From a virus (Duplodnaviria; Heunggongvirae; Uroviricota; Caudoviricetes): DNA of 24,192 bases. Positions within the stretch are counted from its first letter, which is position 1. Each line of letters begins with the position of its first letter. Position numbers and translations under genes: made by a program. Location: the IMG/VR virus record IMGVR_UViG_2713896773_000026; one strand, written 5' to 3'. This document shows positions 4,199 through 23,258 of this stretch, piece by piece. The notes under the pieces were generated by a model that saw only the letters and a list, made by a program, of their open reading frames with translations, ran no database searches and had not been told where the DNA came from.

Positions 4199-5052
4199 GC
4201 ACCATCCTGAAATGGGCGGGAAATAAAACCGCCATTATGCCAGAACTGAAAAAATACCTTCCTGCTGGCCCGCGACTGGTTGAACCTTTCGCGGGTTCCT
4301 GTGCTGTGATGATGGAAACGGATTATCCCAGCTATCTGGTTGCGGATATTAATCCTGATTTAATCAACCTCTATAAAAAGGTTGCCGCTGATTGTGAATC
4401 GTTTATATCTCGCGCCAGAGTTTTATTTGAGATCGCAAACAGGGAGGTGGCTTATTACAACATAAGGCAGGAGTTTAACTGCTCAACTGAAATTACTGAT
4501 TTCATGAAAGCGGTATATTTCCTGTATCTCAATCGTCACGGTTACCGTGGTTTATGTCGCTATAACAAGAGCGGGCATTTCAACATTCCCTACGGTAATT
4601 ATAAAAATCCGTATTTCCCTGAAAAAGAACTTCGCACATTTGCAGAAAAAGCCCAGCGAGCAACGTTTATCTGCGCCAGCTTTGATGAAACGCTGGCGAT
4701 GTTGAAGGCGGGAGATGTGGTGTATTGCGATCCGCCATATGACGGTACGTTTTCCGGCTATCACACTGATGGTTTCACTGAAGATGACCAGTATCACCTG
4801 GCATCCGTTCTTGAACATCGGTCATCAGAAGGACATCCGGTCATTGTTTCTAACAGTGACACATCCCTGATCCGTTCGCTGTATCGCAATTTTACTCACC
4901 ACTATATCAAGGTAAAACGCAGCATCGGTGTGGCAGCTGGCGAGGGTAAATCAGCAACAGAAATCATTGCTGTTTCCGGGCCGCGCTGCTGGATGGGATT
5001 TGATTATTCGCGTGGCGTGGATAGTTCTGCCGTGTACGGAGTACGTGCATGA
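4195..5052 (+). CDS. dam: DNA adenine methyltransferase (Dam-like, orphan MTase)
   Basis: N-terminal AdoMet motif LKWAGNK...EPFAGSCAV and catalytic DPPY motif ([10 protein letters not shown]); ATGA overlap with the upstream stop. Confidence 0.9.
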
Positions 5053-7463
5053 GTCATGCCGATATGAACAACTGCTGCGGCTTTAACGAGGCTGCCGCAG
5101 CATTCTCATGGAACAGCCCGAAAAAGGCCATTAACCCTTATCTGGACCCGGCGGAAGTTGCGCCGGTTTCTACGCTTTCAAACCTGATCACTCTGTACGC
5201 TGCCGATAACGAGCAGGAACAGTTGCGCCGCGAGGCACTGAGTGATCAGGTCTGGGAGCGTTATTTCTTTAATGAATCACGTGATCCTGTCCAGCGCGAA
5301 ATGGAGCAGGATAAGCTCATTAGCCGGGCAAAGCTGGCGCATGAGCAGCAGCGTTTTAATTCAGACATGGTCATTCTGGCGGACGTCAACGCCCAGCCTT
5401 CCCATATCAGCAAGCCGCTGATGCAACGTATTGAATACTTCAGCAGCCTGGGCAGGCCAAAGGCTTATTCCCGCTATTTACGTGAGACGATTAAGCCATG
5501 TCTGGAACGACTGGAGCATGTACGCGACAGTCAGCTATCTGCATCTTTTCGCTTTATGGCAAGCCATGAAGGGCTGGACGGCCTGCTGATCCTGCCTGAA
5601 ATGAGTCAGGATCAGGTGAAACGCCTGTCCACCCTGGTAGCTGCGCATATGAGTATGTGCCTTGATGCAGCTTGTGGTGATTTGTATGCCACCGATGACG
5701 TTAAGCCAGAAGAAATCCGCAAGACATGGGAAAAGGTGGCAGCGGAAACCCTGCGTCTGGATGTCATCCCACCTGCGTTTGAGCAACTCCGTCGGAAAAG
5801 AAACCGCCGTAAACCCGTGCCCTATGAACTCATTCCGGGTTCGCTGGCGCGTATGTTGTGCGCCGACTGGTGGTATCGGAAATTATGGAAGATGCGTTGC
5901 GAATGGCGGGAAGAGCAGTTGCGCGCAGTTTGCCTGGTCAGCAAAAAAGCATCTCCTTATGTCAGCTATGAAGCCGTGATGCATAAACGTGAGCAGCGCC
6001 GTAAGTCGCTGGAGTTTTTCCGTTCTCATGAACTGGTGAACGAAGACGGCGACACGCTGGACATGGAGGATGTGGTAAACGCCAGCAGCAGCAACCCTGC
6101 GCATCGCCGCAATGAGATGATGGCCTGTGTTAAAGGTCTGGAGCTTATCGCGGAAATGCGCGGTGACTGCGCCGTTTTCTACACTATCACCTGTCCGTCG
6201 CGTTTCCATTCCACGCTAAATAACGGCAGACCAAACCCGACCTGGACAAACGCGACGGTAAGACAAAGCAGCGATTATCTGGTCGGCATGTTTGCTGCAT
6301 TTCGTAAGGCGATGCACAAAGCCGGGTTGCGCTGGTATGGCGTGCGGGTGGCTGAGCCGCATCATGATGGCACAGTTCACTGGCACCTGTTGTGTTTCAT
6401 GCGCAAAAAAGACCGCCGTGCCATCACTGCATTACTGCGTAAGTTTGCCATCCGTGAAGACCGCGAGGAGCTGGGCAATAACACTGGGCCGCGCTTTAAG
6501 TCTGAGTTGATTAACCCGCGCAAAGGAACGCCGACAAGCTACATCGCGAAATATATCAGTAAGAACATTGACGGTCGTGGTCTGGCTGGCGAGATCAGCA
6601 AGGAAACGGGTAAATCTCTGCGTGATAACGCTGAATACGTGAATGCCTGGGCGTCTCTGCATCGTGTTCAGCAATTCCGCTTCTTTGGTATTCCGGGGCG
6701 TCAGGCTTACCGTGAACTTCGCTTGCTGGCTGGTCAGGCGGCAAGGCAACAGGGTGACAAAAAAGCAGGTGCGCCGGTACTGGATAACCCGCGTCTTGAT
6801 GCCATTCTGGCTGCTGCTGATGCTGGTTGTTTTGCCACCTACATCATGAAGCAGGGCGGCGTACTGGTTCCCCGTAAATATCACCTCATCAGAACCGCTT
6901 ATGAAATTAACGAAGAGCCGACCGCCTATGGCGATCACGGCATTCGTATTTATGGCATCTGGTCACCCATTGCAGAGGGCAAGATCTGCACTCATGCAGT
7001 GAAGTGGAAAATGGTTCGTAAAGCCGTTGACGTTCAGGAGGCGGCAGCCGACCAGGGCGCTTGCGCCCCTTGGACTCGTGGCAATAACTGTCCCCTTGCT
7101 GAAAATTTGTACCAACAAGGGAAAGACAAATCAGCTGATGGGGATACCAGAACGGATATCACCCGTATGGATGACAAGGAGTTGCACGATTACCTGTACA
7201 GTATGAACAAAAAAGAACGCCGGGAACTGGCTGCAAGGTTACGCCTGGTGAAACCGAAACGGCGTAGAGACTACAAACAGCGAATTACAGACCATCAACG
7301 ACAGCAGCTCGTCTATGAACTGAAGTCCAGAGGATTTGATGGCAGCGAGAAAGAGGTCGATTTACTCCTTCGCGGCGGCAGCATTCCATCAGGAGCAGGC
7401 CTGCGTATTTTCTATCGGAACCAGCGTTTGCAGGAAGATGATAAGTGGCGGAACCTGTATTAA
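5049..7463 (+). CDS. repA: Replication initiation endonuclease (P2 gpA / 186 RepA family, rolling-circle HUH)
   Basis: 804 aa; HUH motif [13 protein letters not shown] and tyrosine motif [10 protein letters not shown]; ATGA overlap with dam. Confidence 0.9.
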
Positions 7464-7555
7464 TTACGCGGATTAACAATTCGTGCTCTTAATAATACCA
7501 GGCATATCAGGCTGATGAACGTAAAAAAACGTTTTACATCAGTAAGATTATTATA

Positions 7556-7575
7556 TACTGTAAATATAAACAGTG
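7556..7575. promoter_or_regulatory. LexA (SOS) box TACTGTAAATATAAACAGTG overlapping a candidate -10 (TATACT) upstream of the tum-like gene
   Basis: CTGT-N8-ACAG with an AT-rich centre matches the LexA consensus taCTGTatatatatACAGta. Confidence 0.6.
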
Positions 7576-7616
7576 GTTATGTATACAGTATTGCTTGTGG
7601 TGTCATAGGAGGAAAG

Positions 7617-7805
7617 ATGCAGGACTATTTTTTGGAGTCTTTGAAGCTCCAACGCATTGATTTTTTTCTTAAGCTTGTAGCGGCTGGTGAGTGTAGTGAT
7701 GAAGAGAAGGGGCTGGCCCTGCAGTGGGTTTCTGAACTGACAGATGAACTCATGGCAAAAATCAGAAGCCACGAATACAACCGCTCAATGGATGTCATCA
7801 GCTGA
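7617..7805 (+). CDS. Small SOS-controlled protein (62 aa), possible Tum-like antirepressor module
   Basis: AGGAGG RBS 4 nt upstream of the ATG at 7617; immediately downstream of the LexA box; position equivalent to 186 tum. Confidence 0.5.
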   Translation: MQDYFLESLKLQRIDFFLKLVAAGECSDEEKGLALQWVSELTDELMAKIRSHEYNRSMDVIS

Positions 7806-7815
7806 GGGGACTTTT

Positions 7816-8049
7816 ATGCGCATTGAAATAATGATCGATAAAGAGCAGAAGATTAGCCAGTCTACCCTGGACGCCCTTGAATCAGAGCTTTACCGCAATC
7901 TGCGCCCCCTGTATCCCAAAACGGTAATTCGTATCCGTAAAGGTAGCTCTAACGGTGTGGAACTGACCGGACTGCAACTGGACGAAGAAAGGAAACAAGT
8001 GATGAAAATTATGCAGAAGGTGTGGGAAGACGACAGCTGGCTGCATTAA
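7816..8049 (+). CDS. DinI-family protein (77 aa)
   Basis: MRIEIMIDKEQKIS...VWEDDSWLH resembles E. coli DinI (MRIEVTIAK...TWESADDWF); GAGGGGA RBS. Confidence 0.75.
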   Translation: MRIEIMIDKEQKISQSTLDALESELYRNLRPLYPKTVIRIRKGSSNGVELTGLQLDEERKQVMKIMQKVWEDDSWLH

Positions 8050-8433
8050 GAAACGTTGCTGGCGTCTGAACTTGTTTCTGGCGTCAGCAAGGTTGAACAA
8101 CGAGCTATGCGAGGCGTTAGCCATCTGATCAAAAGACATCAAATATCATATTGTATATCGTGGTCAAACGCTGGAAACAATCATTCCCGATCAGAGGGGC
8201 TTCTTTCAATGTCCAAAAGAGTGAGATAGAGGATACAGGATGGGAAGAGCTTTTGATTAATTATCGTCCAAGTTTTTCAAAAGCTTCTTATCTGGCGGTC
8301 GATACATGATTTACTGTTGGATATGGTATTTAAAATTAATCTTTACACTGTGGTATATGCAGAATAGGATATTATCAATACAATCAAACTGTTTTCATAC
8401 GGTTATTAATATTGCAATGTTATAGGTAATGTC

Positions 8434-9552
8434 ATGTATCTTTTCAAGTATTACCGTCCGGACTTCTTCTTCGAGAAAGCTATTCGTTATAATGAATTAT
8501 ATTTTTCCGCTCCTGCGCAATTGAATGATCCCAATGATCTCAATATAGATTATCGCTTCGATAATAAATTGAAATTATGGGATATTTTATTGCGTTCTCC
8601 TTGCGATAAATCCTATAAAAATTTGAGTCACATATTGGATTTGAGTGATTTGAAAATACATAAGGGATTGAATCGTATTTTTAGAGGAAAAAAAATAAAA
8701 AGTAGCATTGAGTCATTAGATAGCCTGTTTGACTCACACGTTGATGAGATACGTAAGATCATAGATGATGGTTTACTACCTATCAATGTGATTAATTCTG
8801 CTATTTATGGAAATATTCCTGAACCACGCCAATATTTGGTTTCACTTTGCGAGAACAGTATCAAAGAAAGGTTGTATAGGAAGATAGTTCCTGCAGTATT
8901 CAGTGTGTCATTTTCAGCTAATGCGTTAGATCGTATGATGTGGGCGCATTATGCTGCTGGCTTTAGTGGTTGTGTTGTGATTTATGAAACGCAGGATTTT
9001 AATATTGATGGTATACCCTATACTGGAATGAAGCTAAGAGAAAATTTATTTTCATCAGATAAATTTAATTTTCCAGTTAAGCCAATAAAATATAGTAATC
9101 AGGCTAAAGAGGTTTCACTTCTAGACCCAAGCGCAAATGTTGCAGAGTTATTTTTAACTAAAAATAGATTTTGGAGATATGAAGCTGAATATCGAATGTT
9201 TATTCCGGAGGCAAATGCAGGAATAGGGAGTGAGCGGCATGTTCAAAGACGCGTAAATCGAAATATTGGACATATTTTTCATCATGATGCTAATGTTGTT
9301 AAAGGGATCATTTTTGGTCCTAGAATGTGTGAAATGAAAAAAGAAAGCATATGGAATTGTATCAAGTCAAATATGGAGAATTCAAATTCAACAATATGTT
9401 ATTTTTTTGACTCTGAGTTATTAGCATCAGGAAAGATTACTATTTCAAAAGGGCAACGAGCGGAAAAAATGAAAAATTTCACTTTGTTCAGGAACAAGTT
9501 AAGTCAGACGGAAATGGCTAAAGTTTTGAAGGAAATTGGCATTACGAACTAA
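8434..9552 (+). CDS. AT-rich cargo gene: 372-aa protein with a DUF2971-like N-terminal motif; candidate stand-alone anti-phage or accessory protein
   Basis: Long ORF, markedly AT-rich versus the prophage backbone; N-terminus LFKYYRPDFFFEKAIRYNELYFSAPAQLNDPND resembles the DUF2971 signature as remembered; own terminator downstream. Confidence 0.6.
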   Translation: MYLFKYYRPDFFFEKAIRYNELYFSAPAQLNDPNDLNIDYRFDNKLKLWDILLRSPCDKSYKNLSHILDLSDLKIHKGLNRIFRGKKIKSSIESLDSLFDSHVDEIRKIIDDGLLPINVINSAIYGNIPEPRQYLVSLCENSIKERLYRKIVPAVFSVSFSANALDRMMWAHYAAGFSGCVVIYETQDFNIDGIPYTGMKLRENLFSSDKFNFPVKPIKYSNQAKEVSLLDPSANVAELFLTKNRFWRYEAEYRMFIPEANAGIGSERHVQRRVNRNIGHIFHHDANVVKGIIFGPRMCEMKKESIWNCIKSNMENSNSTICYFFDSELLASGKITISKGQRAEKMKNFTLFRNKLSQTEMAKVLKEIGITN

Positions 9553-9618
9553 CCTAACAACAGTGCATGCCTATGCTGCCTGAATTTGCATGACCGTTTG
9601 AGGATCGTTTTTGCTAAG

Positions 9619-9642
9619 GCCCGCCAGAACTGGCGGGCTTTT
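9619..9642 (+). terminator. Rho-independent terminator after the DUF2971-like gene
   Basis: GC stem GCCCGCC/GGCGGGC with a 6-nt loop, followed by TTTT. Confidence 0.6.
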
Positions 9643-9687
9643 GCGTGGATCAGGCACCTGCATGAAAACCACTACACAAAGCGGGCA

Positions 9688-9706
9688 GGCGTGGCGGGGA
9701 TACGAG
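9688..9706. other. cos: cos-like sequence (GGCGTGGCGGGGATACGAG) in a GC-rich patch
   Basis: First 13 nt match the remembered 186 cohesive end GGCGTGGCGGGGA; the location between the accessory region and the portal side fits the P2/186 prophage map. Confidence 0.35.
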
Positions 9707-9719
9707 CGCGCGCAGCGGG

Positions 9720-9748
9720 TGGAAACTCAGATTTGAATGTTGTATAAA
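9720..9748 (+). promoter_or_regulatory. Candidate retron operon promoter (-35 TGGAAA, 17 bp, TG-adjacent -10 TATAAA)
   Basis: Hexamers about 30 bp upstream of the effector start; weak -35. Confidence 0.25.
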
Positions 9749-9777
9749 AGATGGGATCATTCTGAGGAAAAGTGGAT

Positions 9778-10683
9778 ATGAAAAAGAAAACTATTCCGGA
9801 GTTGCAGAAGCAAAATCTGGCAAATTTAATTAAAAGTCGGCTTTTTCAACAGAAAAATAAAAATAAAGTTACTGTTTTCCTTTGCGGGGGCGATTTGAAT
9901 GATCCGTTTTTTTGTAGAAATAAAGTTAAAAGAGTGTTGGAAACACATCCCAAAATAGAAATATTCTATCCTGAGGAGTTGTTTGATGAGCTTTTGTATG
10001 GACAAGGTCAGCATAGTCTTTTAAGTTTGGAGAATATTTTAGCTGATTCAGTCGATGTTATTATTATTATTCCTGAAAGCCCAGGGTCTTTCGCTGAATT
10101 GGGCGCATTTTCAAATAATGAAAAACTGTGCAAAAAAATGATATGTCTTCAGGATGACAAATTCAAACTTAAAAAAAGCTTTCTTAATTATGGGCCTATA
10201 AAACTGCTTCGGCGTGCTAATAGCGGTGCAGTATTGCGAGGAGATTTGTCGACTCTTGAAAGCTTGAGTACAGGTAAAGCTTTTTATAATAGAATTATAA
10301 AAAGTATTAATGACATCAAAAAAAATAACCCAGTTAATCACTCAATAGATAATATTCTTCACGCTCGGCGTTTTATACTGCCATGTATATATTTGATGGA
10401 TGGTATAGATAATATACTTCTATATGAGCTATTACATTTGGTGACTAAGAAAGATGCTATTCTTTGTGAAATTATCGTTAAGTCTGTTATTTCAAGCTTG
10501 ATTAAAGAGTCAATAATTAGGCGTTCAGTTCAAGGATACCATATTACAGAAATTGGTATGCAATACGTTCTTGAGCATTTTGATCGAAAGGCTTTGGACA
10601 ATCTACGACTGGATATGATGAACTTCGAAAATCGTGGTAAAACAATACTCCACTATGATAGGATGCGTTTTGCGCACCCTTAG
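9778..10683 (+). CDS. Retron effector, nucleoside 2-deoxyribosyltransferase-like (NDT) N-terminal domain with a C-terminal putative DNA-binding domain
   Basis: VTVFLCGGDLNDP and IIIIPESPGSFAELGAF motifs typical of the NDT fold; GAGGAAA RBS; 3' end overlaps the retron a1 repeat; AT-rich. Confidence 0.7.
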   Translation: MKKKTIPELQKQNLANLIKSRLFQQKNKNKVTVFLCGGDLNDPFFCRNKVKRVLETHPKIEIFYPEELFDELLYGQGQHSLLSLENILADSVDVIIIIPESPGSFAELGAFSNNEKLCKKMICLQDDKFKLKKSFLNYGPIKLLRRANSGAVLRGDLSTLESLSTGKAFYNRIIKSINDIKKNNPVNHSIDNILHARRFILPCIYLMDGIDNILLYELLHLVTKKDAILCEIIVKSVISSLIKESIIRRSVQGYHITEIGMQYVLEHFDRKALDNLRLDMMNFENRGKTILHYDRMRFAHP

Positions 10684-10831
10684 CGAGTGGCTTCTCCGGA
10701 AGTTCACTGGACAGTGTTTCGCTGTCCTACATACAATCTGAAGTTTTACCAGTTCCCTCATTGAAAGGAGAACATCTCCCGATGTTCTCCTTTCACTTCG
10801 GAATCTGATTTTTATGACGTAAGGGTGCGCT
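10671..10831 (+). ncRNA. msr-msd: Retron msr-msd non-coding RNA (msDNA template), flanked by a1/a2 inverted repeats
   Basis: a1 TGCGCACCCTTA (10671..10682) and a2 TAAGGGTGCGC (10820..10830) form an 11-bp inverted repeat; msr hairpin GGACAG-tgtttcg-CTGTCC (10709..10727); msd hairpin AAAGGAGAACATC-tccc-GATGTTCTCCTTT (10764..10793); ends 2 nt before the RT start. Confidence 0.8.
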
Positions 10832-10832
10832 C

Positions 10833-11807
10833 ATGACTTCCGCAACACCATCTCAGGTTTTTCGCTTACGCAATCTTGGATTGCCTGTTATGTCCTCTTT
10901 AGAGGATATGTCTAGAGAAATGCGTTTATCAGTAGACATACTCCGGTTGTACATTTATCGTGCTGACAAATACTATAAGGTTTATTCGTTGCCAAAAAGA
11001 GATGGCAAGAGATCCCGCATCATTTCACAGCCATCACGTGAGCTGAAGGCATTGCAAGCTTGGGTGTTAAGAAACATCCTTGATAAGTTACATTCATCCC
11101 CATTTTCCAAAGGCTTTGAAAAAGGGCAATCAATATTAAATAATGCCAGCCCACATGTAGGAGCTAACTATGTATTAAATATTGATTTAGAAGATTGTTT
11201 TAATACTATTCTGATAGAGAAAATCTATACTGTTTTTCATTCTCTGGGGTATAACTCTACTATTTCTAATGCTTTAGCAAGATTGTGTTCATTTAATGGT
11301 TCGCTACCTCAAGGTGCACCATCTTCTCCAAAGATTGCGAATCTTGTTTTAACTAAATTAGATTATAGAATACATGGATATGCAGGTAGTAAGGGGATCG
11401 TATTTACTCGATATGCCGATGATTTGACTTTATCTGCTCAATCTTTAAAAAAAATACTTAAAGCTAAGTCATTTGTATGCTCTATAATACCAAGTGAATC
11501 TTTGAAGGTTAATTATAATAAAGTTGCGATTCATGGCCCCAAAGCAAGGAAGGAGGTTACTGGGCTCGTTTTATCTATTGATAATGTTGGAGTTGGCAGA
11601 ATACGTTATCGCGAAATTAGAAGTAAGATCCATTATCTGGCAGTAAAAAGAAATTCTGATTTCGAACATGTTAAAGGACTTATTGCGTTTGTTAAAAGTG
11701 TAGACAAGAAAAACTATAGAAAATTGATGACTTTCTCAAATAAAATGTCTGAAGCATATGGGGTTGATCTAAGTGTTCTTTTTCCTAAAAACAAAAAGGC
11801 CATTTAA
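10833..11807 (+). CDS. ret: Retron-type reverse transcriptase
   Basis: 324 aa; RT motifs NIDLEDCF, LPQGAPSSP, YTRYADDLTLS (YADD at 11412..11423) and the retron-specific VTG motif (RKEVTGLV). Confidence 0.9.
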   Translation: MTSATPSQVFRLRNLGLPVMSSLEDMSREMRLSVDILRLYIYRADKYYKVYSLPKRDGKRSRIISQPSRELKALQAWVLRNILDKLHSSPFSKGFEKGQSILNNASPHVGANYVLNIDLEDCFNTILIEKIYTVFHSLGYNSTISNALARLCSFNGSLPQGAPSSPKIANLVLTKLDYRIHGYAGSKGIVFTRYADDLTLSAQSLKKILKAKSFVCSIIPSESLKVNYNKVAIHGPKARKEVTGLVLSIDNVGVGRIRYREIRSKIHYLAVKRNSDFEHVKGLIAFVKSVDKKNYRKLMTFSNKMSEAYGVDLSVLFPKNKKAI

Positions 11808-11817
11808 TGGCCTTTTT
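11793..11817. terminator. Bidirectional hairpin terminator between the convergent RT and portal genes
   Basis: Palindrome AAAAAGGCCAT-tta-ATGGCCTTTTT with A/T runs on both sides; overlaps the RT stop. Confidence 0.55.
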
Positions 11818-11822
11818 GTTTA

Positions 11823-12854
11823 TTAGGTAATTGAATAACTCACGAAATTAATAACTTCTTCATTTATCCATTCGTTCAGCTCTTCTAGTCTTTTTTGTAA
11901 AGGGATGAGTTCATTCCTCACAAAAACATTAGCAGCTTTCTCTACATCCCCAAATCCTCCAACATTATTAGGCATAATCCCCATCATTTGCGGTGGCACA
12001 CGATGCGCCGCCATCATGTCATCCCGGCTCACGTTCTTGATGTTCAGAAACTCATCCTTCGCCGCGACCTCTGACAACGGGATAATCTGAAGCCCGTCCT
12101 TTTTGCCGTTAGGCGAGTACATAAACAGGTTGCGGAAGTTACCCGGTCCTTTGGCGCTTTTCATCGCGTTGCGGAGGTTGTTCACGTCCTCCTGGTTCTG
12201 CGCGGCATCGGTCATGTACATGATGAAGCCAGCATGACTGCCGTTTATGTAATACTTTCGACGGAACAGCGTGGCGGACTCATTGAGCAGGGCGGACGGA
12301 ATAGCAGAAAGATAGCCGGGCAGGCCATAGATCTCCTGATTTATGTCCGGTTCCATCAGATGGAAAATGCTGCCTTTCGTGAACTGATACGGTTGCGTGG
12401 TCATGCCGTATTGCACAAACCAGTAGGTATCTAGGTCTAATCCACGTCGGGTGTATTTTGCCAGCGCAGGCTCAAGAGCGATAACTTCACCGAATCGGTT
12501 CGTGCGTTTCTCCAGGTAGGCGTTACCAAATACCAGATAGTCCTGCACAAAACGCGAAAAAGCCTGCTGGCTGAGCAGCGGATGAGGGATATAGGTACTG
12601 GTCAGAATGTTGCACTTTACTGCAATCGGGGAACTGTGATGCACGGCGGCGCGGAAGGTGCGCGCCAGTCCGTCAAAGCTGACGGGCGGCTCATACCAAC
12701 GGTCCATCTGTACGCATTCCACATAATCCAGCAGTTCTCGGCGGTCCAGAACAGGAACGGGATCGCCGAAGCTGAATGCTTCGGCTGTAGTTTGACTTTT
12801 AAGCTGGATCTGTTTCGTCGCCGCAGCGCGGTTCTTCTTACTCTTTCCCATCAA
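11823..12854 (-). CDS. Q: Portal (capsid portal protein, P2 gpQ family)
   Basis: 343 aa; position and orientation next to the terminase gene as in P2 (Q-P leftward operon). Confidence 0.85.
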   Translation of the reverse strand: MMGKSKKNRAAATKQIQLKSQTTAEAFSFGDPVPVLDRRELLDYVECVQMDRWYEPPVSFDGLARTFRAAVHHSSPIAVKCNILTSTYIPHPLLSQQAFSRFVQDYLVFGNAYLEKRTNRFGEVIALEPALAKYTRRGLDLDTYWFVQYGMTTQPYQFTKGSIFHLMEPDINQEIYGLPGYLSAIPSALLNESATLFRRKYYINGSHAGFIMYMTDAAQNQEDVNNLRNAMKSAKGPGNFRNLFMYSPNGKKDGLQIIPLSEVAAKDEFLNIKNVSRDDMMAAHRVPPQMMGIMPNNVGGFGDVEKAANVFVRNELIPLQKRLEELNEWINEEVINFVSYSIT

Positions 12855-14554
12855 AAAATCTCCACAATATTGCTGGTATTGGCGGATTCGCCCTGCAGCG
12901 GTTCGTTAAACAGTGCGTGCATCGTTGCCCAGGCCAGATCGGCGTGGCTGGCTTCTTCGCTGCGGCTGGCTTCATAGGTCGGGCGGTTGCCACTGGCGGT
13001 GGTGGCGCGACGGATTGCCATAAAGGACTGCGCTATGTCGGTGTGTCCGGCGTCAAACTCCAGACGGCGGTGGCTGATAATGTCGTAGGCCTTGAGTACC
13101 AGGGCGTTTTTAACGTTGGGGTTGTAGACAAACTCCCGGACGGCAGGAAAAAACGCTTTCACGTTCTCGTAAACCCCGTGACCAACGCCGGTTGAGTCGA
13201 TACCGATATAGGTCACGTTGTACTGTTCGGTCAGTTTTTTGATGGCGTCAGCCTGGGCGCGGAAGTCCATTCCGCGCCACTGGTGACGCTCAAGAATGCG
13301 GAACTTACCGCCCGGCACGGCTGGCGGCGCCACCACCACGCATCCGGCGCTGTCGCCGTTCTGCGTACCTTTCGCCGGGTCATATCCGATCCACACTTCG
13401 CGCCAGCCAAACGGGCGCAGGGCCAGTGCATGAAAGTCGGTCCAGACTTCCCAACTGTCCACCATGCACGCCTGCAGCTCGCTGAGTGGGAACACAGACG
13501 CGAGATCGTCCACGAACTCACACATCAGCAGGTTCTGGTATTCGTCCGGGCTGTACTCCATGCGCAACTGGTCGAGGTCGAACAGGTTACAGCCGCCGCG
13601 CACCGCATCTTCCACAGTGACTATCTGGCGGTACTGCCCGTCTGCGCACAGCAGGCCGGGGGCCAGATTGCTGTGGGACAGGTCGATGTCCACCTTATCG
13701 GCTTTGTTGCGCCCTCGGTTGAACAGCGCACCGGACCAGAACGGATAAGCACTGTGTGTCAGGCTGGATGGCGTGGAAAAATAGGTTTGTCGCCATTTTT
13801 TGTGAATAGCCATACCGGAAGCCACTTTGCGCAGCTCCTGGAATTTCGGTATCCAGAAATATTCATCCAGATACAGGTTGCCGTGGTAACTCTGGGCCGT
13901 GCGGGCATTGGTGCCGAGGAAGTACAGCGTGGCCCCGTTAGGAAGCACCATCGGATCGCCTTTCAGCTCCACCTCCACTTCTTTGGCGAAGTCGATGATG
14001 TACTGCTTAAAGACGTGGGCCTGAGCCTTGCTGGCGGAAAGGAAAATCTGGTTACGCCCGGTTAGCAGGGCGTCAATCAGGGCTTCACGGGCAAAATAGA
14101 AGGTCGCGCCGATCTGGCGTGACTTCAGCAGGTTGCGGATGCGGTTGGTTTTTCCGGCTTCCCACCAGTGGCGCTGGTAGTTGAACATGGAGGAATGGAA
14201 GATTTCTTCCAGCTTCTCAATCTGTTCATCGGTGAAAACGTTCTTTTCCGGCTGACGGCGCGGGCCTTTGTTGCGGTTGGCGACGTTAGGGTTTAAGTCG
14301 GCTTCGTTGCCGCCATTGTTAAACTTGCCGATCCGCGCATGGCGCTCCGACTGGCGCGCCAGCAGGTCAATCTCTTTGAAATCTTTCCCTTCTTTGTGCT
14401 CCTTCATAATGAGCTGGCAGTAGCGTGCGGCGGTGGTGAGCTGCATCTGATCCAGCGGCCCATAGTCACCCCACTTGTCGCGTTTTTTCCAGCTGTGAAC
14501 GGTTGCAACTTTCTCGCCCAGCATTTCAGCAATGCGGGCTATCTGCCCAGACAC
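12851..14554 (-). CDS. P: Terminase large (ATPase) subunit, P2 gpP family, 5'-truncated at a deletion junction and probably non-functional
   Basis: 567 aa; nuclease-domain-like segments; the upstream in-frame sequence is antisense to the sheath gene, so the native N-terminus and promoter are missing; the GTG start is an ORF-caller artefact. Confidence 0.8.
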
Positions 14555-14562
14555 AGCTCGGC
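14540..14562. other. Deletion junction joining the terminase 5' region to the middle of the tail sheath gene
   Basis: Terminase homology (minus strand) ends and sheath homology (plus strand, from [11 protein letters not shown]) begins within about 20 bp; scaffold, capsid, small terminase, lysis, baseplate and fibre genes are absent. Confidence 0.7.
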
Positions 14563-15363
14563 GTTAAACCGCGCATTCTCGGCGTGCCAGGCCACGACAC
14601 CAAGGCGGTAGCTACTGAGTTGCTGAGCGTGGCGCAAAGCCTGCGTGGATTTGCTTACCTGTCAGCGTATGGCTGCAAGACGGTGCAGGAGGCGATCACT
14701 TACCGTGAAAACTTCAGCCAGCGCGAAGGAATGCTGATCTGGCCCGACTTTACTGGCTGGGACATGGTGCTGAATGCCGAAGCAACGGCATATGCCACCG
14801 CCCGTGCGCTTGGTCTGCGTGCCAAAATTGATGAGCAGACTGGGTGGCACAAAAGCCTGTCCAACGTGGGTGTGAATGGTGTCACCGGAATTTCTGCAGA
14901 TGTGTTCTGGGATCTGCAGGACCCGGCAACCGATGCAGGTCTGCTGAACCAGAACGACGTTACCACGCTTGTGCGTAAAGACGGTTTCCGCTTCTGGGGT
15001 TCCCGCTGCCTGAGTGATGACCCGCTCTTTGCCTTCGAAAACTACACCCGCACGGCGCAGGTGCTGACGGACACAATGGCAGAAGCGCACATGTGGGCAG
15101 TGGACAAACCGCTGAACCCGTCGCTGGCGCGCGACATTATCGAGGGCATCCGCGCCAAAATGCGCAGCCTGGTCAGTCAGGGGTATCTCATTGGTGGTGA
15201 TTGCTGGCTGGACGAGTCGGTGAACGACAAAGACACTCTGAAAGCCGGAAAACTCACCATCGACTACGACTACACGCCAGTGCCGCCACTTGAAAACCTG
15301 ATGTTGCGTCAGCGCATCACCGATCAGTACCTGGTGAATTTCGCCAGCCAGGTCAGCGCGTAA
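14543..15363 (+). pseudogene. FI: Tail sheath protein (P2 gpFI family), C-terminal two-thirds only
   Basis: Clear similarity to remembered P2 FI from about residue 130 ([11 protein letters not shown]...WPDF...[15 protein letters not shown]...[20 protein letters not shown]); no native start or RBS. Confidence 0.8.
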
Positions 15364-19449: not shown

Positions 19450-19931
19450 TGATGGTGCTGGGATTGTACGTGTTTATGCTGCGCACCGTGCCGTATCAGG
19501 AGCTGCAGTATCAACGCAGCTGGCGACATGCGGCAAACAGCCGGGTAAACCGACGTCCGTCCACGCAGTTTCTGGGACCGGACAACGACATGCTGACGCT
19601 TTCCGGTGTTCTTATGCCGGAGATAACAGGTGGCAGGCTGTCGTTGCTGGCACTGGAGCAGATGGCAGAACAGGGGAAAGCATGGCCCCTGATTGAAGGC
19701 AGCGGCACGATTTATGGCATGTATGTGATTGAGGGACTGAATCAGACTAAAACGGAGTTTTTCCGCGACGGTATGCCGCGCCGGATTGAGTTCACCCTGT
19801 CGCTCAAACGGGTGGATGAATCCCTGTCCGGTATGTTCGGTGATCTCAGTACGCAACTGAATAATCTGCAGGACACGGCAACATCTGCCTTAAGTGATAT
19901 CAGTAAAACGGTGGGAGGGCTGCTGTCGTGA
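19446..19931 (+). CDS. U: Tail protein gpU
   Basis: 161 aa; start overlaps the T stop (ATGATGATG); position between T and D. Confidence 0.8.
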   Translation: MMMVLGLYVFMLRTVPYQELQYQRSWRHAANSRVNRRPSTQFLGPDNDMLTLSGVLMPEITGGRLSLLALEQMAEQGKAWPLIEGSGTIYGMYVIEGLNQTKTEFFRDGMPRRIEFTLSLKRVDESLSGMFGDLSTQLNNLQDTATSALSDISKTVGGLLS

Positions 19932-21028
19932 ATTTCAGCTCTGAACTGCTTAACAAAGGCAACAAAACTCCCGCATTCAGCATCAGTATTGAGGGCAGGG
20001 ATATCACTACTGTGCTGGATAACCGTCTGATGAGTCTGACGCTGACGGACAATCGGGGCTTTGAAGCGGACCAGCTTGATCTGGAGCTGGACGACGCCGA
20101 CGGAAAAATCGTGCTGCCGCGCCGTGGTGCGGTCATCACGCTGGCGCTGGGCTGGAAGGGGCAGCCGCTTTTCCCGAAAGGGGCATTCACGGTGGACGAG
20201 ATTGAACACACCGGCGCACCGGATCGCCTGACTATCCGGGCGCGAAGTGCTGATTTTAGGGAAACGCTGAATACCCGCCGTGAAAAATCGTGGCACAAGA
20301 CCACTGTCGGGGAAGTGGTGAAGGAAATAGCCGCGCGTCATAAGCTGAAGATGGCACTGGGTAAAGACCTGTCGGATAAGCCCGTGGAGCATATAGACCA
20401 GACTAATGAGAGTGACGGCAGTTTTCTGATGCGGCTGGCGCGCCAGTACGGTGCCATCGCGTCGGTGAAAAATGGCAATCTGTTATTCATCCGGCAGGGA
20501 CAGGGCAAAAGCGCCAGCGGTAAACCACTGCCGGTGATCTCAATCACACGTAAGGACGGCGACAGTCACCGCTTTACCCTGGCAGATCGCGGAGCCTACA
20601 CGGGCGTAATTGCCAGTTGGTTGCATACCCGCGAACCCGAGAAGAAAGAAAGCACCACGGTGAAGCGTAAGCGCAGGACTAAGAAGCAGAAGAAAGAGCC
20701 GGAAGCGAAGCAGGGCGATTACCTGGTGGGTACGGATGAAAACGTGCTGGTACTTAATCGCACTTATGCCAACCGGAGCAACGCCGAACGGGCAGCGAAA
20801 ATGCAGTGGGAACGCCTGCAACGCGGCGTTGCATCATTCTCGCTACAACTGGCGGAAGGGCGGGCAGATCTCTACACAGAAATGCCTGTGAAGGTCAGTG
20901 GCTTTAAACAGCCGATAGATGATGCGGAATGGACCATTACGACTCTGACGCATACCGTCAGCCCCGATAACGGTTTTACAACCAGTCTGGAGCTTGAAGT
21001 GAGGATTGATGATTTCGAAATGGAATGA
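19928..21028 (+). CDS. D: Tail protein gpD (late gene D family)
   Basis: 366 aa; GTG start overlapping the U stop with a GGGAGGG RBS; position before ogr. Confidence 0.8.
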   Translation: MNFSSELLNKGNKTPAFSISIEGRDITTVLDNRLMSLTLTDNRGFEADQLDLELDDADGKIVLPRRGAVITLALGWKGQPLFPKGAFTVDEIEHTGAPDRLTIRARSADFRETLNTRREKSWHKTTVGEVVKEIAARHKLKMALGKDLSDKPVEHIDQTNESDGSFLMRLARQYGAIASVKNGNLLFIRQGQGKSASGKPLPVISITRKDGDSHRFTLADRGAYTGVIASWLHTREPEKKESTTVKRKRRTKKQKKEPEAKQGDYLVGTDENVLVLNRTYANRSNAERAAKMQWERLQRGVASFSLQLAEGRADLYTEMPVKVSGFKQPIDDAEWTITTLTHTVSPDNGFTTSLELEVRIDDFEME

Positions 21029-21118
21029 TTATTCGCAATGGAGAACTTTTAAGTTTGCAAAATGGAATAATGCGGTATCATTATTGTGAATTTAGCAAAA
21101 ATGGGGAGAACTCGAAAA

Positions 21119-21337
21119 ATGATGATTTGCCCACTGTGTGGAAGTGCCGCCCATACTCGCAGCAGTTTTCAGGTATCTTCATTGACCAAAGAGCGTTACA
21201 ACCAGTGCCAGAACATTAACTGCAGCCATACTTTTGTTACCCATGAAACTTTTGTTCGTTCGATTGCAACGCCAAAAGAGTCAAATCCGGTTCAGCCGCA
21301 TCCAATGAAATCAGGACAGGTGGCGCTCTCTCTTTGA
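21119..21337 (+). CDS. ogr: Late transcription activator, Ogr/B (Delta) zinc-finger family
   Basis: 72 aa from the ATG at 21119; CPLCGSAAH...CQNINCSH zinc-finger pattern as in P2 Ogr (CPLCQHAAH...CQNVNCS). Confidence 0.85.
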   Translation: MMICPLCGSAAHTRSSFQVSSLTKERYNQCQNINCSHTFVTHETFVRSIATPKESNPVQPHPMKSGQVALSL

Positions 21338-21359
21338 CGCTGCCGCCATTTTGTCGCCA
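21338..21359. repeat. attR: attR core (right copy of the 22-bp direct repeat cgctgccgccattttgtcgcca)
   Basis: 21/22 identical to 19..40; immediately after the ogr stop. Confidence 0.65.
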
Positions 21360-21415
21360 TCGTTAAAAAACAGTGTTTCTAACATCATGATTTTAAACAG
21401 CTTAAATTTCAGGCA

Positions 21416-21460
21416 ACAAAAAACCCATCAACCTTGAACCGAAATGGCGGGGTTGATGGG
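21416..21460 (-). terminator. Candidate rho-independent terminator downstream of ybjL
   Basis: 10-bp stem CCCATCAACC/GGTTGATGGG (17-nt loop) followed on the minus strand by a U-run (plus-strand A6). Confidence 0.4.
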
Positions 21461-21572
21461 CTCCACAAAATGGGGACATCAAAGAAAAGCAGTGGCACTA
21501 ATTAAGACTGATGCCCTGCGGAAAAGTTCTGCGGTTGTGCAAAAAAATTTCATTTTCAGGGCAACTTCAGTT

Positions 21573-23258
21573 TTATCCTAATCCTGGCCATACCATGACG
21601 ATGATTGTCCCTGCCAGCGTCAGCAGGACGTTGGCGATTGCATAGGTGCCCGCATAGCCCAGCGCCGGGATGTTACTGCGAGCTGTATCACTGATGATCT
21701 CCATTGCCGGCGCGCAGGTACGTGCGCCCATCATTGCGCCGAACAACAGCGCGCGGTTCATTCGCAATACATAAGCACCGAACAAGAAACAGATAACCAC
21801 GGGCACCAGACTGACAATCAATCCGGCAATCAACATCTGACCGCCAATCGCGCCCAGGCCGTTATTAATACCGCTACCGGCGCTCAGACCAACGCCTGCC
21901 ATAAACACCATCAAGCCGAACTCTTTCACCATGCTTAATGCACCCTGCGGAATGTAACCGAAGGTCGGGTGGTTAGCACGCATAAAGCCCAGCATAATTC
22001 CGGCGAATAACAACCCGGCAGCGTTCCCCATGCCGAAACTGAATGTGCTGAACTGGAAGGTGATCATCCCGATCATCAGCCCAATAACAAAGAAGGCGCA
22101 GAATGCCAGCAGGTCAGTGACCTGGCTGTGAATCGAGATAAAGCCGATGCGATCGGCGATGGTTTTTACGCGGCGGGCATCGCCGCTGACTTGTAAAACG
22201 TCACCTTTGTTAAGCACGACGTTGTCATCTATCGGCATCTCAATCTGGCTACGAATGACGCGGTTAAGGAAGCAACCGTGATCGGTCAACTTCAGTTGTG
22301 CGAGACGTTTACCTACAGCGTTATGGTTTTTAACGACCACTTCTTCAGTGACGATACGCATGTCGAGAAGGTCACGATCGAAAACTTCTTTACCGTTACG
22401 GAAGCTGGGATCGAGTCGGGCATGGGCGTCGGGATAGCCTACCAACGCTATTTCATCGCCCATTTGTAGCACGGCATCACCGTCTGGATTTGCCAGAATC
22501 CCGTTACGTCGAATACGTTCAATGTAGCAGCCGGTTTGTCGATAAATACCCAGTTCACGCAGATTTTTGCCGTCGGTCCAGGCCACCAGTTCCGGGCCGA
22601 CGCGATAGGCGCGGATCACCGGTAAATAAACCTTACGGTTGGCATCAGTGTCCAGGCCACGTTCGCGGGCGATTTGCTGGGCGCTGGTCTGTAAGTCCTG
22701 ATGCTGCAATTTCGGCAAGTAACGCGCACCAACAATCAAACTCACCAGACCGATTAAATAGGTTAAGGCATACCCGAGGCTCAGATTATCCAGTGCCAGT
22801 GAGAGCTGCCTGCTTTCCATGCCGGAATGACGCAGTGTATCGCCAGCACCGACCAGAACCGGTGTCGACGTCATAGAGCCTGCTAACATACCGGCCGTCA
22901 GGCCAATATCCCAGCCAAACAGCTTACCTAACCCTAAGGCGATCACCAGCGCACTGCCAACCATCACCAGTGCTAACATTAGGTAATTTTTCCCATCGCG
23001 AAAAAAAATGGAAAAAAAGTTCGGTCCGGCTTCGACCCCGACGCAGAAAATAAACAGCATAAAGCCAAGATTAAGCGCATCGGTGTTAATGCTGAAATGT
23101 TGTTGGCCTAATAACAGCGATACGACTAAAACGCCAATGGAATTACCCAGTTGGATCGAACCAAGTCGTAACTTTCCGAGACATAGCCCAAGCGCGAGGA
23201 CCACAAATAATAACAGAATGTAATTCCCATTTAACAATTCGGCGACGTTTATATTCAC
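21573..23258 (-). CDS. ybjL: Putative transporter YbjL (AAE/YidE-YbjL family, duplicated transmembrane domains with central TrkA-C-like domains)
   Basis: 561-aa polytopic membrane protein matching remembered E. coli YbjL. Confidence 0.85.

Follow-up and report, generated by a model that had tools for sequence, protein, structure and literature searches.

The stretch of viral DNA analyzed here (IMG/VR record IMGVR_UViG_2713896773_000026, Caudoviricetes; 24,192 nucleotides, referred to as the window) holds a P2-family prophage, whose integrase, repressor of the CI type, and early operon lie at the left. Between gpA and the cohesive-end site (cos) of this prophage lies an AT-rich open reading frame (ORF), whose product belongs to the DUF2971 family and is predicted to adopt a fold like that of ADP-ribosyltransferases (ARTs); a retron follows on the other side of cos (Table 1). 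The gpA-to-gpQ interval around cos is the P2 defense hotspot described by Rousset et al. 2022 (PMC9122126), and in P2 itself the part from gpA/orf91 to cos is occupied by tin and old. An earlier note on the window, made from the sequence without database searches, had assigned the ORF to this accessory or exclusion slot, and the comparison with P2 bears out the assignment.

Judged by its sequence, the ORF is a real coding gene under purifying selection. It appears in the six-frame list of ORFs with the 372 codons claimed for it, encodes a protein of 43 kDa with an isoelectric point of 9.1 and no predicted transmembrane segment, and is free of stop codons in all five alleles. The ratio of nonsynonymous to synonymous substitutions (dN/dS) is 0.12 (dS 0.69) against an allele of 84.6% identity and 0.20 against an allele of 97.8% identity. 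The AT-richness that had been pointed out before is real: the GC content of the ORF is 0.334 (0.29 at third codon positions), compared with 0.528 in gpA and ~0.57 in the terminase and tail genes, and the two downstream retron genes are as AT-rich as the ORF (GC 0.34–0.35). The gene is best explained as horizontally acquired accessory cargo of foreign composition.

Table 1. Features of the window in and around the DUF2971 gene; positions count from the first nucleotide of the window
Feature	Position	Strand	Details
gpA	5049–7463		Pfam Phage_GPA
Small ORF, then DinI-like gene	DinI-like gene ends at 8049		Between gpA and the DUF2971 ORF
Cargo cassette, 1.3 kb	8261–9562	+	ORF with 173 bp on its 5′ side and 10 bp on its 3′ side
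Sigma-70 promoter-like site	8342–8370	+	TTTACA-17-TAGGAT; consensus scan, 9 of 12 matches
DUF2971/PDC-S31 family ORF, predicted ART-like fold	8434–9552	+	ATG start; 372 aa
Residues 1–45	8434–8568	+	Strand-helix-strand and NDP loop; F-K5-Y-Y-R8...E21-L-Y-F24-S...L-N31-D32-P33
Residues 46–148, helical insert	8569–8877	+	Entropy 2.41 bits; length varies in the superfamily; helices in the model
Residues 149–260, candidate catalytic core	8878–9213	+	S159-F-S161 on a strand; helix M-W170-A-H-Y173-A
Motif K243-N-x-F-W247-x-Y249-E250-x-E252-x-R254 in residues 149–260	ExE at 9181–9189		Runs into a strand
Residues 284–345, conserved C-terminal part of the DUF2971 unit	9283–9468	+	G291-I-I-F-G295-P, helix, beta hairpin
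Residues 346–372, subfamily-specific tail	9469–9549	+	Final helix; not in DUF2971 proteins of 250–280 aa; entropy 2.64 bits
Terminator-like GC-rich hairpin, then TTTT; phage backbone	9616–9645	+	ΔG −27.6 kcal/mol, z −3.1
P2-family cos cohesive-end sequence	9688–9706	.	Alignment to annotated P2 cosR
Retron effector	9772–10683		NDT_II-A match; NCBIfam “retron St85 family effector”
Retron reverse transcriptase	10833–11807		RT_II-A/retron_St85_RT match
Portal gpQ and terminase gpP		−	Beyond the retron

By sequence comparison, the encoded protein is a member of a compact subfamily of long proteins (~370 aa) within DUF2971. It aligns with the full 89-position Pfam model of DUF2971 (PF11185) at residues 169–255 (21.3 bits, E = 7e-4), which is 0.7 bits short of the gathering cut-off (22 bits), and all of its 44 aligned relatives match the same model (E ≤ 0.01, best 6e-9). 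The RefSeq name of the protein is likewise DUF2971, and the motifs of the family are all present and aligned with those of the short canonical members ([FY][KR][FY]...ELYFS...NDP, [CS]-x-S, MWxHYA, KxxxWxYExExR, and GIIFG). Four profiles of PDC-S31, a candidate defense system in PADLOC, match the protein, with PDLC04990 scoring best (E = 1.3e-23, residues 3–312), and all 44 relatives match as well. The PHROGs match is phrog_1762, whose function is given there as unknown. No NCBIfam model matches the protein, and in Pfam, DUF2971 is the sole family that scores at E ≤ 1, with no match to DarT/DUF4433. The relationship to DUF2971 proposed in the earlier note is thus upheld by the Pfam hidden Markov models, with the window protein just below the cut-off, and the defense classifier that it had suggested as a check returns PDC-S31. 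Its mention of a DUF2971-like N-terminus holds in part: the N-terminal block is the best-conserved region and is shared with the short canonical members, but the Pfam match itself lies in the middle of the protein.

A database search returned 58 homologs from Enterobacterales and Pseudomonas, all but one with a length of 366–399 aa and most of them carrying PF11185. Clustering at 90% identity gave ~67 clusters from Enterobacterales, Pseudomonas, and Paraburkholderia, most of them with 364–399 aa, which have 42 invariant positions. A profile search contributes a few further members, after which the score falls from 412 to 72 bits between the subfamily and the DUF2971 proteins of 250–280 aa, and the profile of alignment A1 finds canonical PF11185 proteins of that length at E values from 1.7e-14 to 1.3e-5. 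The DUF2971 superfamily comprises 6797 cluster representatives (50% identity) at E ≤ 1e-3 and is common on enterobacterial plasmids, with matches to a remote relative in 699 records of PLSDB.

An AlphaFold2 model of the protein, based on the alignment of 44 sequences (pLDDT 92.8, pTM 0.86), contains the core fold of ARTs. Its nearest fold relatives are DarT and Tpt1/KptA; the ART toxins TreX, SopF, TreTu, Scabin, and CARDS and also PARP15 were named among the others. The rest of the protein, in which no motif had been recognized before, is therefore not featureless, as structure prediction and fold comparison assign it an ART fold. The assignment agrees with the ART-like model published for the DUF2971 protein Aristaios (PMC11381338) and with a survey of ARTs (PMC12522546), in which DUF2971 was classed among them as a new family with DarT and AbiGi as its relatives. 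According to the survey, the histidine of motif I is poorly conserved in DUF2971, a tyrosine is conserved strictly, and the proteins have an ExE motif as well as large helical inserts.

Residue conservation was scored over 33 superfamily sequences at ~20% identity (alignment A4). The invariant residues are N31, D32, W170, Y173, G179, Y220, K243, E250, E252, and R254; E21, F24, P33, S161, W247, Y249, G291, and G295 are nearly invariant, and position 5 is always lysine or arginine. The N-terminal block has the lowest mean entropy of the protein (0.89 bits), and its position 5, with K or R throughout the superfamily, is a candidate for ART motif I. When the motifs are mapped from the order of the secondary-structure elements in the model, motif I would fall on K5 in the first strand, motif II on the S159-F-S161 strand and the subsequent helix with Y173, and motif III on E250-x-E252. 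Candidate catalytic residues are Y173, E250, and E252. The helical insert at residues 46–148 may represent a specificity or sensor module.

The subfamily owes its additional length to the longer variable helical insert and the C-terminal tail. The region ahead of the tail (residues 284–345) is common to the short canonical DUF2971 proteins, and the PADLOC and PHROG profiles reach residues 312–338. A separate C-terminal sensor domain was considered and dropped, because the GIIFG region and the strands that follow it occur also in canonical DUF2971 proteins of 250–280 aa. Profile searches of PDB sequences with alignments A1 and A4 returned only nonsignificant matches (E 0.14–2), to peptide deformylase. 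The segment aligned to the HExxH region of the deformylase, IGHIFHHDANVVKGIIFG (residues 279–296, nucleotides 9268–9321; “rIFHHD....GIIFG”), includes H284, which is nearly invariant in the subfamily; the match was treated as a product of chance, which it probably is, a metal site being the less likely reading.

Distant members of the subfamily are solitary genes in mobile elements, namely three lambdoid prophages and one integrative and conjugative element (ICE). In a lambdoid prophage of E. coli, the gene is located in the nin region beside genes for GIY-YIG, HNH, and DUF7380 proteins, on the strand opposite to the flanking phage genes; in a lambdoid prophage of Enterobacter, it follows O/P; in a Morganella prophage, it lies between Dam and Q, again opposite to the flanking phage genes; and in a Salmonella ICE, it is situated within the conjugation module. 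None of the 11 contexts inspected has a conserved linked partner or antitoxin gene, and none has a DarG-like macrodomain. A remote relative adjoins genes encoding GmrSD, NOV_C, and TIR proteins. A paralog with 41% identity in an E. coli lambdoid prophage (locus L010, 5807–12163; locus L011, 409–6765) is part of a block of genes outside the phage core, which sits between the replication genes and Q and encodes a 617-aa DUF7380/EMARD_N protein, a LEM-3-type GIY-YIG protein, a 411-aa HNH_2 protein, and a 186-aa protein; this block may be a defense cluster.

The gene is rare in E. coli. A megablast search with positions 8300–9760 against 5426 complete E. coli genomes detected it in 27 of them (0.5%), at 84.6–100% identity and always annotated as “DUF2971 domain-containing protein”. 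The cos region, which forms the final 200 bases of the query, has matches in 1249 genomes. In all six annotated loci inspected, the gene is located between the DinI-like gene and cos. Deposited phages almost entirely lack it, with a single weak, partial match in a tblastn search of 50,697 phage records, and the matches listed in a tblastn search of plasmids are all to remote relatives within DUF2971, neither members of the subfamily nor Lactococcus records being among them. The table of Rousset et al. (PMC9122126) contains an entry “hypothetical + DinI + DUF2971 + hypothetical” that includes WP_021542067, the allele of locus L003; a 2026 preprint on P2/P4 hotspots does not mention DUF2971.

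The limits of the cassette are evident from a prophage without the gene (locus L008), which aligns with the window as far as TTTGATTAA (8252–8260) and again from GTGCATG (9563). The diverged DUF2971-bearing loci L003 and L004 can be aligned over the whole cassette interval, including the 5′ region. The stretch that separates the ORF from the retron (9553–9714) has a GC content of 0.568 and contains a cos sequence, GGCGTGGCGGGGATACGAG, that is identical at 16 of 19 positions with the annotated cosR (right cohesive end) of P2, GGCGAGGCGGGGAAAGCAC; the bases flanking it, AAAACC...AAGCGGGC, are also conserved. Conservation from locus to locus stops at ~9714. The GC-rich patch that the earlier note had called cos-like is thus a true cos, and the retron that it had placed beyond the patch is indeed there, with an NDT_II-A effector and an St85 reverse transcriptase.

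The claim of an independent single-gene cassette has also been strengthened, since near-identical copies of the gene are paired with different cargos on the other side of cos. The six DUF2971 loci have six different cargos between cos and the portal gene: the St85 retron, two hypothetical genes with IS421, a gene for a 557-aa hypothetical protein, a DUF4145 protein gene (L004, 5514–6212), a DprA-like gene (L005, 6103–7077), and a gene for a 380-aa hypothetical protein. Likewise, E. coli H1 possesses the same retron with a different cargo to the left of cos, and strain 504239 has yet another left cargo. These combinations show that the P2 cos-proximal hotspot consists of a left and a right slot, separated by cos, whose contents are swapped independently, and the locus in the window illustrates this organization. 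The DprA-like cargo recalls DprA-PRTase, a system that Rousset et al. validated, although no PRTase is annotated at that locus.

In the 5′ region of the cassette, the promoter-like site at 8342–8370 is a putative functional promoter; both of its hexamers are kept in the 84%-identical allele of L004, and the number of promoter-like sites in the region is no higher than expected from shuffled sequences. Downstream of the ORF, the earlier note had assumed that the cassette has its own terminator. This is ruled out, because the hairpin in question (9616–9641 without the T-run) lies outside the cassette in the conserved cos-proximal backbone and is present in loci both with and without the DUF2971 gene. 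It would stop the transcription of any cargo lying upstream. The consensus scan overlooked the hairpin because its T-run consists of only four T. A small ORF at ~8150–8260, between the DinI-like gene and the cassette, encodes 86 aa in L004 and 47 aa in L008 (where it covers part of the interval), and compared with L003, L004, and L008, its copy in the window has an internal deletion of ~121 bp. This ORF appears to belong to the backbone and not to the cargo.

Among characterized systems, the closest counterpart is Aristaios, the only member of DUF2971 with a demonstrated anti-phage phenotype. This single-gene system of the Lactococcus plasmid pUCCL641_199 (Nucleic Acids Research 2024, PMC11381338) encodes a 316-aa DUF2971 protein with an ART-like model and protects Lactococcus against phages with an abortive-infection phenotype. 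Compared by its published description, Aristaios resembles the gene in the window in being a lone DUF2971 protein with an ART-like predicted fold. It differs in size and setting (316 aa on a plasmid of a Gram-positive bacterium versus 372 aa in an enterobacterial P2 prophage), and the subfamily of the window protein has a longer helical insert and an additional C-terminal tail. The likeness to PDC-S31 consists of the profile match and the organization as a single gene, as implied by the “S” class; PDC-S31 is a candidate system, so the match does not imply a function.

DarT, the ART of the DarTG system that modifies thymidine in single-stranded DNA, shares the ART fold with the window protein at an identity of 8–13%. 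By contrast, the window protein has large helical inserts, a Y-E-x-E-x-R motif, and K/R at the motif I position, and its gene has neither a DarG or macrodomain partner nor a Pfam DarT match, its neighbors being the DinI-like gene and cos. An identity with DarTG was therefore rejected, based on the absence of a DarG partner from the 11 contexts and of a DarT match in Pfam at E ≤ 1. The members of Tpt1/KptA are housekeeping enzymes of RNA processing with another set of catalytic residues, and profile searches of PDB sequences detected no relationship to them at the sequence level. The likeness to old and tin of P2 concerns the location: they occupy the same cos-adjacent slot and are optional, AT-rich cargo that is swapped for unrelated genes in sister prophages. 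The proteins, however, are unrelated (Old is a nuclease/ATPase), and old–tin are transcribed leftward from a promoter near cos, whereas the gene in the window reads rightward toward cos. On present evidence, the gene resembles Aristaios most in its working and DarT in its structure.

The reading that appears to deserve slightly better than even credence is that the gene encodes a stand-alone, NAD+-dependent ART that excludes superinfecting phages and is carried by the P2-like prophage as horizontally acquired cargo. A role in exclusion is suggested by the occurrence of subfamily members as solitary genes in mobile elements, together with the protection conferred by the lone DUF2971 protein of Aristaios. 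For the enzymatic activity, the use of NAD+, the target, the trigger, the lysogenic expression, and the phenotype against phages, we infer the following scheme. The lysogen would produce the protein by transcription from the gene's own promoter, by read-through from the early operon, or both, and the enzyme would be inactive or harmless until another phage infects the cell. Upon infection, it would use NAD+ to ADP-ribosylate a macromolecule required for phage replication and thereby halt the infection, with the probable loss of the infected cell (abortive infection). DNA or RNA would be the favored target, because the proteins with the nearest structures modify nucleic acids (DarT acts on single-stranded DNA, Tpt1/KptA on RNA), and the variable helical insert at residues 46–148 is the best candidate for the recognition of the target or the trigger.

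Several observations weigh against this reading. The DUF2971 gene of P2 prophages was catalogued by Rousset et al. (PMC9122126) and is not among their validated systems. PDC-S31 has the status of a candidate system only, and a literature search for the name returned no paper. Motif I of the protein is a lysine or arginine, not the canonical histidine or arginine at a fixed position. One of the homologs in Pseudomonas is located in a small chromosomal islet with an ordinary-looking neighborhood. A toxic ART without an antitoxin would require some mechanism of control. Moreover, there is no terminator-like site on the plus strand between the DinI-like gene and the ORF (8049–8434), and the gene is co-oriented with the early operon; its expression might be confined to lytic growth.

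The same co-orientation with the early replication operon (gpA, the small ORF, and the DinI-like gene) and the same lack of an intervening terminator, together with the ART fold, would also fit a gene that serves the lytic cycle of the phage itself by reprogramming the host machinery, as the ARTs Alt, ModA, and ModB of T4 do during phage growth. Such a role is decidedly unlikely, however, for a gene that is optional (27 of ~1249 genomes with the cos backbone, with unrelated cargo in the slot elsewhere) and almost absent from deposited phage genomes, whose subfamily also occurs in an ICE and a chromosomal islet, and which is encoded on the strand opposite to the phage operons in the lambdoid prophages of Morganella and E. 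coli. The gene has also been kept in a prophage from which the genes for the head, for lysis, and for most of the tail have disappeared. An ART-like fold may also support other chemistry, and the protein could be a 2′-phosphotransferase of the Tpt1/KptA type, a modifier of RNA ends, or a noncatalytic sensor or binding protein. The catalytic tetrad of Tpt1 is Arg-His-Arg-Arg. Nothing that clearly corresponds to this tetrad is seen in the set of invariant residues, the strictly invariant acidic and aromatic residues argue for catalysis, and the invariant Y-E-x-E-x-R is typical of transferases with an ExE motif (PMC12522546), which renders these alternatives quite unlikely.

It is very doubtful that the protein is a toxin, be it for addiction to the element or for the attack on other cells as a secreted or injected ART effector. 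An antitoxin or immunity neighbor is not conserved in the 11 contexts, features of Rhs proteins, type VI or type III secretion systems, and signal peptides are lacking, as are transmembrane segments, and the genes are located in the cargo slots of phages and ICEs, not in secretion loci. A passenger role, selfish or neutral, in which the gene would show no phenotype in the laboratory, seems just as improbable. The rarity of the gene, with 0.5% of the complete E. coli genomes, would agree with a passenger; a dN/dS of 0.12 over a dS of 0.69 and the existence of ~67 clusters that are similar in length, share 42 invariant positions, and come from Enterobacterales, Pseudomonas, and Paraburkholderia speak against it.

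A more specific version of the favored exclusion function, which must be considered rather unlikely as it stands, is that the members of the subfamily are self-contained sensor–effectors: antitoxin-free ARTs of nucleic acids, similar to DarT and Tpt1, in which the hypervariable insert would keep the enzyme off until it recognizes a phage component. If true, a single protein would here do the work of DarTG, and the very large DUF2971 superfamily would gain its first mechanism. Much about the gene is already known, since it was catalogued in the P2 hotspot and its family has been flagged as a defense candidate and a predicted ART, and its existence, location, and predicted fold would not surprise a specialist. 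With a confident model and a native cassette of 1.3 kb, it offers a convenient entry point to the target and the control of an antitoxin-free ART.

The retron in the cos-to-portal slot (9772–11807) is a complete member of the St85 family (type II-A). The gap of 149 bp between its effector and reverse transcriptase genes (10684–10832, GC 0.46) is the expected place of the msr/msd RNA. A scan of positions 7400–12000 with Rfam yielded nothing at E ≤ 0.1, neither an RNA element in or beside the cassette nor a match to a retron noncoding RNA.

The prophage in the window is defective. Its gpP gene (12851–14554, minus strand) is cut at the 5′ end and fused to a 3′ portion of the gene for the tail sheath (14503–15363). 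An intact sister prophage in E. coli O68:H12 97.3 matches the window as far as 14541, a position within gpP. A region of ~12 kb of the sister prophage is missing from the window, including the genes for the scaffold, capsid, small terminase, lysis, baseplate, and fiber proteins, and the junction at ~14541 is absent from all 5426 complete E. coli genomes. Despite the decay of the prophage, both of its AT-rich cargos, to the left and to the right of cos, have been retained. The 97.3 prophage, which is otherwise 99.9% identical, harbors a 1.9-kb group II intron (ltrA) between gpA and the small ORF (L001, 6368–8276), which does not occur at the corresponding site of the window (7575/7576). To the right of gpD (19928–21028) lies a 64-aa ORF (21025–21219) that possibly encodes an Ogr-type regulator. 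It is followed on the minus strand by a gene for a 561-aa Asp-Al_Ex/TrkA_C permease that resembles host chromosome (region 21025–23258), so the right end of the prophage should fall near 21.2–21.5 kb.

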